Origin: Escherichia coli | GTDB lineage: Bacteria > Pseudomonadota > Gammaproteobacteria > Enterobacterales > Enterobacteriaceae | Strand: one strand, 5' to 3' | Assembly: GCF_003334255.1 (NCBI RefSeq) | Contig: NZ_QOWU01000003.1 | Length of the DNA stretch: 64,000 nt | Shown here: positions 1 to 50,174 of the stretch, piece by piece | How positions within the stretch are numbered: position 1 is the first letter of the stretch | Layout of the letters: each line of letters starts with the position of its first letter | Translations under genes and position numbers: made by a program | Notes under the pieces: model-generated | What the model was told of the DNA's origin: nothing | Database searches by the model: none | The model's input: only the letters and a program-made list of their open reading frames with translations

Positions 1-752
1 TTCTGGGGATTGATTTTTGGCTGGAAGCCTTATTTTTATTCCGCCCGATAATCGTTTGTACCCTAACTGGCGCTATTCTCGGTGATATTCAGACTGGCTT
101 AATTACCGGTGGTCTGACAGAGTTGGCTTTCGCCGGATTAACCCCTGCAGGTGGTGTTCAGCCGCCCAACCCGATTATGGCGGGTCTGATGACCACCGTC
201 ATTGCATGGTCTACGGGCGTTGATGCCAAAACAGCAATTGGTCTTGGCCTGCCGTTTAGTTTGTTAATGCAGTACGTCATTCTGTTCTTCTATTCCGCTT
301 TCTCATTATTTATGACCAAAGCCGATAAATGCGCGAAAGAGGCGGATACGGCAGCGTTTTCCCGGCTTAACTGGACAACGATGCTCATCGTCGCTTCAGC
401 GTATGCGGTGATTGCTTTCCTCTGTACTTACCTGGCACAGGGGGCGATGCAGGCGCTGGTGAAAGCGATGCCCGCCTAGCTGACCCACGGCTTTGAAGTG
501 GCTGGCGGTATTCTGCCTGCCGTTGGTTTTGGCTTGCTGCTGCGCGTAATGTTCAAAGCGCAATATATCCCTTACCTGATCGCCGGTTTCCTGTTTGTTT
601 GCTACATCCAGGTCAGCAACCTGTTGCCGGTTGCCGTACTGGGCGCAGGCTTTGCGGTGTATGAGTTTTTCAATGCGAAATCCCGGCAGCAAGCGCAACC
701 GCAGCCCGTTGCCAGTAAAAATGAAGAAGAGGACTACAGCAATGGGATCTGA
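1..752 (+). pseudogene. agaC: PTS N-acetylgalactosamine/galactosamine IIC component; 5' end outside window; reading frame interrupted by in-frame TAG at 477-479
   Basis: ORFs 123..479 and 498..752 are in the same frame and together read as one mannose-family IIC membrane protein (...QALVKAMPA*LTHGFEVAGGILPAVGFG...); 3' end overlaps agaD start by 11 nt. Confidence 0.8.
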
Positions 753-6604: not shown

Positions 6605-7696
6605 ATGAAAAGAGCGCCTCTTATAACAGGTCTTTTGTTGATATCCACATCCTGCACTTATGCCTCCTCAGGAGGGTGTGGAGCCGACAGCACTAGCGGT
6701 GCGACAAATTACAGCAGTGTGGTTGATGATGTTACGGTGAACCAGACAGATAACGTGACAGGACGGGAGTTTACCTCTGCAACGCTAAGTAGCACTAACT
6801 GGCAATACGCCTGTTCCTGCTCTGCGGGTAAGGCAGTTAAACTTGTCTATATGGTCAGCCCCGTACTTACCACCACTGGACATCAGACAGGATATTACAA
6901 ACTCAATGACAGCCTGGATATTAAAACCACATTACAGGCAAACGACATTCCAGGACTCACAACCGACCAGGTTGTCTCTGTTAACACCCGATTCACACAG
7001 ATAAAAAACAACACGGTATATTCTGCTGCAACCCAAACGGGTGTTTGCCAGGGTGATACGTCTCGTTATGGACCCGTTAATATTGGTGCGAACACCACCT
7101 TTACCCTGTATGTCACCAAGCCATTTCTCGGCTCGATGACCATTCCGAAAACGGATATTGCCGTCATTAAAGGCGCGTGGGTCGATGGAATGGGAAGCCC
7201 GTCTACAGGTGACTTCCATGATTTAGTCAAGTTATCGATTCAGGGAAATCTCACCGCCCCACAGTCGTGCAAAATTAATCAGGGCGATGTTATTAAGGTT
7301 AATTTTGGATTCATCAATGGTCAGAAGTTTACCACCCGCAATGCCATGCCAGACGGTTTTACTCCAGTAGACTTTGATATCACTTATGACTGTGGTGATA
7401 CTTCAAAGATTAAAAACTCGTTGCAAATGCGCATCGACGGTACAACTGGGGTAGTAGACCAGTACAACCTGGTCGCCAGGCGAAGAAGTTCAGACAATGT
7501 GCCCGATGTCGGTATTCGTATTGAAAATCTCGGCGGCGGAGTTGCAAATATTCCTTTTCAGAACGGTATCCTTCCCGTTGATCCTTCCGGGCATGGCACC
7601 GTCAATATGCGCGCCTGGCCAGTTAATCTGGTCGGTGGTGAGCTGGAAACAGGAAAATTTCAGGGCACAGCCACCATTACCGTCATCGTGCGGTAA
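6605..7696 (+). CDS. yraK: Fimbrial adhesin-like (tip) protein
   Basis: 363 aa from ATG 6605 ([22 protein letters not shown]...); signal peptide; last gene of the chaperone-usher operon. Confidence 0.85.
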
Positions 7697-8600
7697 AAGA
7701 AGACGTTGCGTTTTGATTAACGCAACGCTTCGGCACTGTTACCCCTGCTGCTCCAGCGCATAACTTATACAGCGCATTTTTCTTCACGCCGTGAATTTCT
7801 GCGGCCAGCGCCGCCGCTTTTTTCAGCGGCAGTTCTGCCTGTAGCAGCGCCAGCGTGCGCAGGGCATCGGCGGGTAAGTCTTCTTCCTGTGCTTTATGAC
7901 CTTCGACAATCAGCACCATTTCGCCTTTGCGACGGTTTTCATCTTCCTTTACCCACGCCAGCAGCTCGCCAACGGGCGCGCCGTGAATGGTTTCCCAGGT
8001 TTTGGTCAGCTCACGCGCCAGAACCACGTAGCGGGATTCGCCTAATACCGCAACGATATCTTCCAGGCTATCTAACAGACGGTGGGTAGATTCATAAAAA
8101 ATCAGCGTGCGCGGCTCCGCTTCAATGGCTTTTAGCGCATCACGGCGGCCTTTTGATTTGGCAGGTAAAAAGCCTTCGTAACAGAAACGGTCAGAGGGTA
8201 AACCCGCTGCGCTTAACGCAGTGATAGCAGCACACGGCCCGGGTAGCGGCACCACGCGGATCCCCGCTTCACGGCAGGTACGCACCAGATGGTAGCCAGG
8301 ATCGTTAATTAGCGGCGTTCCGGCATCGGAAACCAGCGCAATGTTTTGCCCCTCTTGCAGCTTCGCCAGCAGCGTTTCAGCTTTTTGTTGTTCGTTATGG
8401 TCGTGCAGCGCAAACAACCGGGCATTAATCCCAAAATGTTGCAGCAATAAACCGGTGTGACGAGTATCCTCGGCGGCAATCAGATCAACGGCCTGTAATA
8501 CCTCTAACGCACGCTGGGTGATATCCGCCAGATTGCCGATTGGCGTCGGTACAATGTAAAGCTGGCCCTGAGAATTATCCGCCGATTGGTGTTGTTTCAT
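7683..8600 (-). CDS. rsmI: 16S rRNA 2'-O-ribose C1402 methyltransferase; 3' end reads in a shifted frame in this window (305 codons instead of the expected 286)
   Basis: N-terminus [24 protein letters not shown]; tetrapyrrole-methylase-type SAM MTase; the +1 frame between about 7760 and 7783 leads to ...YALEQQG-TAA at 7739-7741, i.e. a 286-aa product. Confidence 0.85.
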
Positions 8601-28485: not shown

Positions 28486-28520
28486 AAAATTAATTTCAGG
28501 TGGAAGGGCTGTTCACGTTG

Positions 28521-28593
28521 ACCTGATAAGACGCGCCAGCGTCACATCAGGCAATCCATGCCGGATGCAGCGTAAACGCCTTATCCCGCATGG
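28521..28593. repeat. REP elements in infB-rbfA intergenic region
   Basis: GACCTGATAAGACGCGCCAGCGTCACATCAGGC and GCCGGATGCAGCGTAAACGCCTTATCCCGCATGG. Confidence 0.75.
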
Positions 28594-28606: not shown

Positions 28607-31279
28607 TTAAGCAATGGTACGTTGGATCTCGATGATTTCGAATACTTCGATCACATCGCCAGTGCGGACGTCGTTGTAGTTCTTAACGCCGATACCACAT
28701 TCCATACCGTTACGGACTTCGTTAACGTCATCTTTGAAGCGGCGCAGGGACTCCAGCTCGCCTTCGTAGATAACCACGTTGTCACGCAGAACGCGGATCG
28801 GGTTGTGACGTTTAACCACACCTTCGGTAACCATACAGCCTGCGATGGCACCAAATTTCGGCGATTTGAACACGTCACGAACTTCCGCCAGACCGATAAT
28901 CTGCTGTTTCAGTTCCGGAGACAGCATACCGCTCATCGCCGCTTTCACTTCGTCAATCAGGTTATAGATGACGGAGTAGTAACGCAGATCCAGGCTTTCC
29001 GCTTCAATCACTTTACGTGCAGAGGCATCAGCACGTACGTTAAAGCCAACCAGGATGGCGTTGGACGCCGCAGCCAGGGTGGCGTCGGTTTCGGTGATAC
29101 CACCTACGCCAGAACCGATGATCTTCACTTTAACTTCGTCAGTAGACAGTTTCAGCAAGGAGTCGGAGATCGCTTCGACAGAACCCTGTACGTCTGCCTT
29201 CAGGACGATATTCACTTCGTGAACTTCGCCTTCGGTCATGTTGGCGAACATGTTCTCGAGTTTAGATTTCTGCTGACGCGCCAGTTTAACTTCGCGGAAT
29301 TTACCCTGACGATAGAGTGCAACTTCACGCGCTTTCTTCTCGTCACGTACAACGGTAACTTCATCACCCGCAGCCGGTACGCCGGACAGGCCGAGGATTT
29401 CCACCGGAATGGACGGACCCGCTTCCAGCACTTCCTGACCCAGTTCGTTACGCATCGCACGAACACGACCGTATTCGAAGCCACACAGAACGATATCGCC
29501 CTTGTGCAGAGTACCTTCACGTACCAGAACGGTAGCAACCGGACCACGACCTTTATCGAGGAAGGATTCGATAACCGCACCGCTCGCCATACCTTTACGT
29601 ACCGCTTTCAGCTCCAGAACTTCCGCCTGCAGCAGGATAGCGTCCAGCAGTTCATCGATACCGGTACCCGCTTTCGCAGATACGTGTACGAACTGGCTTT
29701 CACCGCCCCACTCTTCCGGCAGGATGCCGTACTGGGAGAGTTCGTTCTTAACGCGATCCGGATCAGCTTCTGGTTTATCGATCTTGTTCACTGCAACCAC
29801 CACCGGTACCTGCGCCGCTTTCGCGTGCTGGATTGCTTCGATGGTCTGCGGCATCACACCGTCGTCGGCAGCAACAACCAGGACTACGATGTCCGTTGCC
29901 TGCGCACCACGAGCACGCATTGAAGTAAACGCGGCGTGCCCCGGGGTGTCCAGGAAGGTGATCATGCCGTTTTCAGTTTCAACGTGGTATGCACCAATGT
30001 GCTGGGTAATGCCGCCCGCTTCGCCAGAGGCCACTTTCGTTGAACGAATGTAGTCCAGCAGAGAGGTTTTACCGTGGTCAACGTGACCCATGATGGTCAC
30101 AACCGGCGCGCGCGGTTCAGCCGCAGCACCCGTGTCACGGTCGCTCATTACCGCCTCTTCCAGCTCGTTTTCACGACGCAGGATAACTTTATGGCCCATC
30201 TCTTCAGCAACCAGCTGTGCGGTTTCCTGATCGATAACCTGGTTGATGGTTGCCATTGCGCCCAGTTTCATCATCGCTTTGATGACCTGAGAGCCTTTAA
30301 CCGCCATCTTGTTCGCCAGTTCGCCAACGGTGATAGTTTCGCCGATCACAACGTCACGGTTAACGGCCTGAGCAGGCTTCTGGAAGCCTTGCTGCAGCGA
30401 AGAACCTTTACGTTTTCCGCCTTTACCGCCACGTACTGCTGCGCGTGCTTCTTCACGATCAGCTTTTGATTCAGCGTGTTTGTTGCCTTTCTTCGGACGC
30501 GCTGCTTTCGCGTTACGACCACGGCCACGGCCGCCTTCGACTTCACGATCGCTTTCGTCTTCTGCCTGGCGAGCATGTTGAGAAGTAGTGACGTGATAAT
30601 CGCTGGAATCTTCAGTCGGTTCCGCGTTATCAGTCCATTTGTTTTCTTCCGCCATACGACGTGCTTCTTCAGCAACGCGACGTGCTTCTTCTTCGAGTTT
30701 ACGACGCGCTTCTTCTTCAGCTTTACGCTTGAGCTCTGCAGCTTCCTGCTCACGGCGGGCTTTTTCAGCCTGGGCGTTTTTAGTCATATCGTCTTGTTGA
30801 TTGCTCACTTTGTCTTTTTCCGCAGCTTCACGTTTCGCTTGTTCAGCAGCTTCACGCTTAGCTTGTTCTGCGGCCTCACGTTCAGCTTTTTGTTGCGCCT
30901 CGCGTTTAGCCGATTCTTCTGCCTCACGACGGGCTTGCTCTTCCGCTTCACGCTGCGCTTGCTCTTCCGCTGCAAGGCGTTCAGCCTCTTGCGGATCGCG
31001 TTTCACAAAGGTGCGTTTCTTGCGGACTTCGATTTGTACCGATTTGCTTTTTCCACCGGTACCAGGAATGTTAAGGGTGCTGCGTGTTTTACGTTGCAGC
31101 GTCAATTTGTCCGGGCCTGAATTTTTCTGATTCAGGTGGTCAATCAAAGTCTGTTTCTCTTGTGCAGACACAGAGTCGTCAGCAGACTTCCGGATACCTG
31201 CATCAGCAAATTGCTGTACCAGGCGTTCCACGGAGGTCTGTCGCTCTGCGGCCAGCGTTTTAATCGTTACATCTGTCAT
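28607..31279 (-). CDS. infB: Translation initiation factor IF-2
   Basis: 890 aa; GTP-binding domain ([16 protein letters not shown]); N-terminal E/A/K/R-rich repeats. Confidence 0.97.
30785..30808 (-). other. infB: Internal in-frame start codons for IF2-beta (GTG, codon 158) and IF2-gamma (ATG, codon 165)
   Basis: Counting the translated ORF puts V158 (GTG at 30806-30808) and M165 (ATG at 30785-30787) at the reported isoform starts. Confidence 0.6.
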
Positions 31280-31303
31280 GCTGTTCCTTCCTGCTACAGT
31301 TTA

Positions 31304-32791
<1,488 letters not shown>

Positions 32792-33477: not shown

Positions 33478-33554
<77 letters not shown>

Positions 33555-49946: not shown

Positions 49947-50174
49947 TCCCCTCCCCTCATCCCGCGCAGTGCGCGGGATGATTCCAGTAAACTCCATAAG
50001 AATACTTATTCAGCGTAATAATGCACTGAAAAACCAGTGTATACATCTTTATATATTCTGAATATTCACACTCTTTACAGGAACTTTTTAGAGCAATCGG
50101 CCATCAGGAGTATAGTGATGCTCGACAGAAGAAGTGTTCTGAATGAAAGCGACTAACTTAAGGAGTGAGGAAAG

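Follow-up and report, generated by a model that had tools for sequence, protein, structure and literature searches.

Internal in-frame translation starts of infB in an Escherichia coli genome: context, predicted mRNA accessibility and conservation within Enterobacterales

It has been demonstrated in Escherichia coli that infB yields three forms of the initiation factor IF2, namely IF2-1 (97.3 kDa), IF2-2 (79.7 kDa) and IF2-3 (78.8 kDa), and that the two shorter forms arise from internal in-frame starts (Madison et al. 2012; PMC3334882). The start-codon mutations g474c and t494c abolish IF2-2 and IF2-3, and the allele infB(del1), which lies within the nusA-infB operon and retains no more than 32 nt before the IF2-2 start, remains able to express the short forms (PMC3334882). 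The same study found the long and short forms to be near equimolar; the ratio is reported to shift in the cold, the short forms increasing in cold shock, and losing either class results in cold sensitivity and distinct DNA-damage phenotypes, affecting growth in the cold and recovery from DNA damage (PMC3334882). Specific peaks of retapamulin-arrested ribosomes (Ribo-RET) have been observed at the verified internal site of infB (Meydan et al.; bioRxiv 10.1101/520783). In addition, TRAINSPOTTER N-terminomics of K-12 infB detected the N-terminal peptides 158-175 and 165-175, and the former starts with methionine although the genome encodes valine at GTG158 (PMC13245402). For the tandem translation of IF2, the works cited in the literature are those of Plumbridge et al. 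1985, Nyengaard et al. 1991 and Sacerdot et al. 1992.

These starts are also present in the reference annotation. The curated RefSeq record of E. coli K-12 MG1655 (NC_000913) gives three CDSs for b3168 (3313342..3316014, 3313342..3315543 and 3313342..3315522), the two shorter of which have their starts 471 and 492 nt downstream of the first ATG, corresponding to codons 158 and 165. The internal starts of infB are therefore textbook knowledge of several decades' standing, and reporting them in a further strain is correct and ordinary. Another E. coli genome with these codons adds nothing biologically, and the new content of our analysis is confined to quantitative figures on conservation and accessibility.

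The window analyzed here is a stretch of 64,000 nucleotides of an E. coli genome (NCBI RefSeq assembly GCF_003334255.1, contig NZ_QOWU01000003.1), and its infB gene occupies 28607..31279 on the minus strand, starting with the ATG at 31279..31277 and encoding the full-length product of 890 aa (IF2-1, or IF2-alpha) in the ORF list. This CDS was identical to b3168 of MG1655 at 2673 of 2673 nucleotides. The NCBIfam IF-2 equivalog model TIGR00487 matched residues 306-889 of the product with 987.9 bits (cutoff 424.4), and the gene order rimP-nusA-infB-rbfA-truB-rpsO-pnp identifies it as the IF2 ortholog within the nusA-infB-rbfA operon. A segment of 2794 nt over infB was matched in all 5426 complete E. 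coli genomes, in many of them with 100% identity and with an annotated infB adjoining nusA. Taken together with the positions of the start codons described below, the locus is almost certainly E. coli infB carrying the two well-known in-frame starts inside the gene.

Across 50 kb, the window as a whole was 99.90% identical to MG1655, and it therefore comes from a close non-K-12 relative. Upstream of rimP-nusA-infB, the tRNA gene metY (33478..33554, minus strand) has a G at window position 33508 (linear position 47, standard position 46), where MG1655 has an A. Presumably, this is the known difference between tRNA-fMet1 and tRNA-fMet2, with A46 being peculiar to the metY gene of K-12, and the G46 confirms that the window is not from K-12. 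Two other differences from MG1655 were noted away from infB. In rsmI (ORF 7683..8600, minus strand), an extra A at window position 7762 (cataactt vs. catactt in MG1655) shifts the frame approximately 7 codons before the stop and gives an ORF of 305 aa vs. 286 aa; an exact 56-mer around this A occurred in none of the 5426 complete E. coli genomes, the best match being 98.2%, and the extra A reflects a sequencing error or else a frameshift private to this genome. The intergenic region between ispB and sfsB (49970..50043) shows approximately 20 substitutions and small indels within 75 nt, compared with only approximately 29 scattered differing positions in the rest of the 50 kb, and this cluster may be a variable repeat element. 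Among the Rfam matches in the window, naRNA4 (CssrE, a nucleoid-associated ncRNA; 28520..28590, minus strand, 68.1 bits) falls in the infB-rbfA spacer, just downstream of the infB stop codon, and the others were as expected: SraG, the S15 leader, the rimP leader, the greA leader and two tRNAs.

An earlier note on this DNA had proposed that infB encodes three proteins from one frame by means of internal starts within its repetitive N-terminal region. Counting from the ATG of the 890-codon ORF, we found the GTG of codon 158 at 30806..30808 and the ATG of codon 165 at 30785..30787, both on the minus strand and in frame, and the span 30785-30808 given in that note is bounded exactly by the G of GTG158 and that of ATG165. 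The resulting CDSs, 28607..30808 for IF2-2 (IF2-beta) and 28607..30787 for IF2-3 (IF2-beta'), begin at the codons published for the shorter IF2 forms, as the sequence is identical to b3168 and the starts coincide with those of the NC_000913 CDSs at 3315543 and 3315522. We take IF2-3 to be the form also called IF2-gamma. Two NTG codons alone would not be beyond chance, because the ORF contains 45 in-frame ATG, GTG or TTG codons; codons 158 and 165 become meaningful through the identity with the experimentally characterised K-12 gene, the codon-level conservation at position 158 and the extreme predicted accessibility of the mRNA.

The proposal of three proteins from one frame is supported by the published start-codon mutants, Ribo-RET and N-terminal peptides for the identical K-12 sequence. 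The initiation-site data by which the earlier note suggested checking it are already available for this exact sequence, as Ribo-RET peaks and as the Met-initiated peptide 158-175 together with the peptide 165-175 beginning at Met165, and nothing that we found contradicted the use of codons 158 and 165 as starts. By virtue of this identity, the strain of the window is expected to make the three products that N-terminomics and Ribo-RET have revealed in K-12. Ribosomes would start independently at AUG1, GUG158 and AUG165 on one mRNA, giving IF2-1 of 890 aa, IF2-2 of 733 aa and IF2-3 of 726 aa. These forms would have the whole conserved GTPase core in common and differ only by the N-terminal 157 or 164 residues; since the TIGR00487 match covers residues 306-889, the entire conserved core is kept in both short products. 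The further statement that a plain CDS call misses this situation applies to automatic annotation, as in the record of strain ER1709, which has a single infB CDS, but not to the curated NC_000913, which lists all three. This is of relevance for annotation, as automatic pipelines give infB one CDS though the gene makes three proteins.

To evaluate the context of these starts, Shine-Dalgarno (SD) pairing was calculated as the predicted duplex of the 16S 3' end with positions -20..-3. The predicted energies were -3.5 kcal/mol for GUG158, -1.9 kcal/mol for AUG165 and -6.5 kcal/mol for AUG1. An SD-like sequence 5' of 30808, for which the earlier note had suggested a search, does exist, as a GGA at 30821..30819 (-13..-11 from GTG158) within the GCGGAA of Ala153-Glu154 (30818..30823, minus strand), but with its -3.5 kcal/mol it is weak. 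Between the GGA and GTG158 lies the A-rich spacer AAAGACAAA (30809..30817, minus strand). SD-led canonical initiation was rejected as a description of this site: there is no strong pairing 5-10 nt upstream, and SD strength fails to single out codons 158 and 165, as several in-frame NTG codons that are not starts pair better than GUG158 (for example, -9.6 kcal/mol at codon 497 and -6.9 kcal/mol at codon 378). The upstream context that suffices according to infB(del1), at most 32 nt before GUG158, is intact in the window, being identical to K-12 with the conserved GCGGAA and the A-rich spacer present. A different arrangement was observed in two infB loci of Rosenbergiella, in which the replacement of Ala153 by Val (GTG GAA) creates GGUGGA upstream of the internal GTG, with a predicted SD energy of -9.8 vs. 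-3.5 kcal/mol.

The mRNA structure around the starts was predicted by folding every 63-nt segment (-30..+32) along the infB CDS and recording the minimum free energy (MFE). A structure-poor zone spans both internal starts (30758..30847, minus strand): all of the 25 least-structured segments of the CDS were centred on codons 155-164, and the MFE reached its maximum of -2.7 kcal/mol at codon 158.3, compared with a CDS mean of -15.2 kcal/mol. When the probability that positions -15..+9 are unpaired was calculated with a local partition function, AUG165 ranked first of 2640 positions (0.097 vs. a median of 8e-7), while GUG158 ranked 72nd and AUG1 285th; all of these values are thermodynamic predictions on naked mRNA that ignore translating ribosomes. 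The same pattern was predicted in other Enterobacterales, where, in 33 of 37 species, the least-structured segment either coincided with the codon-158 homolog or was only a few codons away from it, and the most accessible in-frame NTG codon was the homolog of codon 158 or 165 in 34 of 37. On these predictions, low mRNA structure is a stronger signature of the internal starts than the SD sequence. It has been reported that A-rich, weakly structured start sites are correctly used even without SD pairing and that A-rich upstream sequence promotes initiation (Saito et al. 2020, PMC7043885), and the low structure and A-richness of the infB site fit this.

Internal initiation would thus depend mainly on a conserved, A-rich and structure-free stretch of mRNA, which would let 30S subunits bind within an otherwise well-folded coding region, and only a weak GGA element, 10 nt upstream of GUG158, would assist. 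This mechanism is a predicted one, and sequence analysis is unable to tell apart what the weak GGA, the A-rich spacer and the low structure each contribute.

Conservation was first considered within the species. A core of 45 nt (30779..30823) that takes in the GGA and extends slightly beyond ATG165 was identical in 5303 of the 5426 complete E. coli genomes. Its one common polymorphism was a synonymous change of Ser159 from AGC to AGT (window position 30803), present in 118 genomes, and the remaining 5 genomes showed other differences of 1-2 nt; both start codons were kept in at least 5421 of the 5426.

For a comparison among species, 80 infB loci were obtained from a scan of species-representative genomes, and 61 full-length genes were aligned together with that of the window. 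The motif K-V-[ST]-N-Q could be aligned in 37 species of Enterobacterales, which formed the set for all codon counts and include Enterobacteriaceae, Erwinia/Pantoea, Pectobacterium/Dickeya/Brenneria, Serratia/Rahnella/Rouxiella, Edwardsiella, Photorhabdus and Providencia. Codon 158 was GTG in 35 species and TTG, encoding leucine, in the other two, such that it is start-capable in 37 of 37. Among 66 conserved valine columns, it was the sole column with 100% GTG, the mean GTG share being 0.34. At codon 165, 27 species had ATG, 2 had GTG and the other 8 had GTA, AAA or ACT, none of which is a start codon. The conservation of codon 165 among the closest relatives could be slightly inflated, as the loci were collected with six peptide patterns, of which one (NQQDDMTK) contains Met165. 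Because AUG165 has been replaced by a non-start codon in these 8 species, IF2-3 is not a universal requirement.

Synonymous variation around codon 158 was also reduced. The normalised synonymous entropy was zero at Ala153 (GCG in 35/35), Glu154 (GAA in 37/37), Lys157 (AAA in 35/35) and Val158, while nearby columns of the same residues vary, Lys149 being AAA in 18 species and AAG in 18, and Ala152 using four codons. The 7-codon window 152-158 had the 4th lowest synonymous entropy of 713, and the three windows that were lower all lie at codons 1-9, at the primary start. The possibility that codons 158 and 165 are chance codons without function was excluded by the codon-level conservation seen in the codon counts above.

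The K-V-[ST]-N-Q motif was absent from the infB genes of Aeromonas, Vibrionaceae, Alteromonadales and Orbaceae in the aligned set, which gave no consistent signal of an equivalent internal start outside Enterobacterales. Two observations were made on more divergent N-terminal regions. In two Arsenophonus endosymbionts, whose N-terminal region is shortened, no other in-frame start-capable codon came near GUG128 or UUG128 in accessibility (probability unpaired 0.12 and 0.046), and this codon may be homologous to GUG158, displaced and wrongly positioned in the protein alignment. Among the in-frame NTG codons of each of the five Aeromonas species, a UUG at codon 117 or 118 ranked first (four species) or second in accessibility; with low unpaired probabilities of 0.0002-0.0013 and closely related species, this signal is weak.

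The repetitive character of the N-terminal region, as described in the earlier note, was borne out by Tandem Repeats Finder, which reported arrays at 30814..30888, 30915..30971 and 30644..30727. The first of these (minus strand; period 24, 3.1 copies, 82% matches) encodes units of EAAEQAKR. Unit 1 (gag gcc gca gaa caa gct aag cgt) and unit 2 (gaa gct gct gaa caa gcg aaa cgt) encode this peptide exactly, and unit 3 (gaa gct gcg gaa aaa gac aaa gtg) is degenerate and encodes EAAEKDKV, with GTG158 as its last codon in place of the arginine codon CGT of the other units. The GGA is confined to this last unit, because its second alanine codon is GCG rather than GCA or GCT. The preceding unit provides a control within the gene: across species, the alanine of column 145 is encoded by GCT in 28 of 33, whereas that of column 153 is GCG in 35 of 35. 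This comparison suggests that the weak GGA and the A-rich spacer are maintained features rather than accidents of codon usage, and the arrangement of the array suggests that the internal start evolved from a repeat copy.

A broader scenario would combine these observations. The GUG158 site, with its start-capable codon, the GGA owed to a synonymous GCG, the A-only spacer and the structure-free zone, would be under purifying selection at the nucleotide level in at least six families of Enterobacterales and would have originated from the degenerate last 24-nt repeat (EAAEQAKR to EAAEKDKV); AUG165 would have been lost repeatedly, IF2-2 being the selected form and IF2-3 a dispensable by-product arising from the same landing zone, and the isoform system would be an innovation specific to Enterobacterales. 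In our judgment, the chances that this scenario holds are about even. For work with synonymous mutations on internal initiation with almost no SD sequence, the restriction of codon 158 to GTG or TTG, the zero synonymous variation just upstream and the accessibility maximum could serve as a guide.

Explanations of the short forms other than internal initiation were also weighed. They might be proteolytic products of full-length IF2, with the in-frame GTG and ATG being incidental, as NTG codons in frame are common (45 in the ORF) and the N-terminal region is of low complexity and probably a flexible linker. However, the N-terminal peptides carry methionine at position 158, where elongation would insert valine (PMC13245402), the short forms are lost upon point mutation of the two codons and persist when the IF2-1 start is deleted (PMC3334882). 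Moreover, Ribo-RET places initiating ribosomes at the site (bioRxiv 10.1101/520783), and codon 158 is start-capable in all 37 species, even in the two where leucine TTG was substituted. A proteolytic origin is ruled out by the Met-158 peptides and the start-codon mutants, and we leave it a negligible probability. A separate shorter transcript, produced by a promoter or by RNA processing inside infB, has slightly more in its favor but is still very improbable as the main source of the short forms, compared with ribosomes entering the full-length mRNA internally, although RNA processing may make some contribution. Numerous promoters and processing sites occur in the metY-nusA-infB operon (PMC6511841), and cells deficient in RNase E give better tandem expression of recombinant IF2, according to the title of Mortensen et al. 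1995. Nevertheless, what is conserved here (start-capable codon, GGA, A-rich spacer and low structure) is characteristic of a ribosome-binding region, and infB(del1), with 32 nt upstream of the IF2-2 start in the nusA-infB operon, makes the short forms (PMC3334882). An internal promoter was also searched for and rejected, as no sigma-70-like match was found on either strand within 30700..31400. Terminator-like hairpins at 30745..30772 and 30997..31015 on the plus strand, antisense to infB, were dismissed as chance occurrences, with 3 found vs. 1.3 expected from shuffled sequence.

If independent internal initiation is accepted, it may still be asked whether both starts matter. Codon 165 is a non-start in 8 of 37 species where codon 158 is start-capable in all, and the published phenotypes treat IF2-2 and IF2-3 jointly (PMC3334882), such that GUG158 might be the only biologically relevant start, with AUG165 as a leaky by-product or a back-up start in the same ribosome landing zone. 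Against this, N-terminal peptides of IF2-3 have been detected (PMC13245402), no other position of the E. coli CDS is predicted to be as accessible as AUG165, and 29 of the 37 species have ATG or GTG at codon 165. We consider a role for GUG158 alone to be a real possibility, albeit one with somewhat less than an even chance of being right.

Of the systems with which the locus can be compared, the closest is infB of E. coli K-12 with its starts AUG1, GUG158 and AUG165, which is the same gene with the same nucleotide sequence, codons and context, and there are no differences within infB. Tandem translation of IF2 has also been described in a distant bacterium, Bacillus subtilis, where infB gives alpha and beta forms according to the title of Hubert et al. 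1992. The N-terminal region of the B. subtilis gene is not alignable with that of E. coli, and the GUG158 motif is confined to Enterobacterales in the aligned set; therefore, any putative similarity to B. subtilis is either convergent or too diverged to trace. According to the literature, other genes of E. coli with verified in-frame internal starts are clpB, mrcB (also written mcrB; Meydan et al.), cheA and clpA. Like infB, each of them yields a full-length and an N-terminally truncated protein from one ORF by independent internal initiation, at sites detected by Ribo-RET. Unlike these genes, infB has two closely spaced internal starts and three products, with its long and short forms in near equimolar amounts (PMC3334882).
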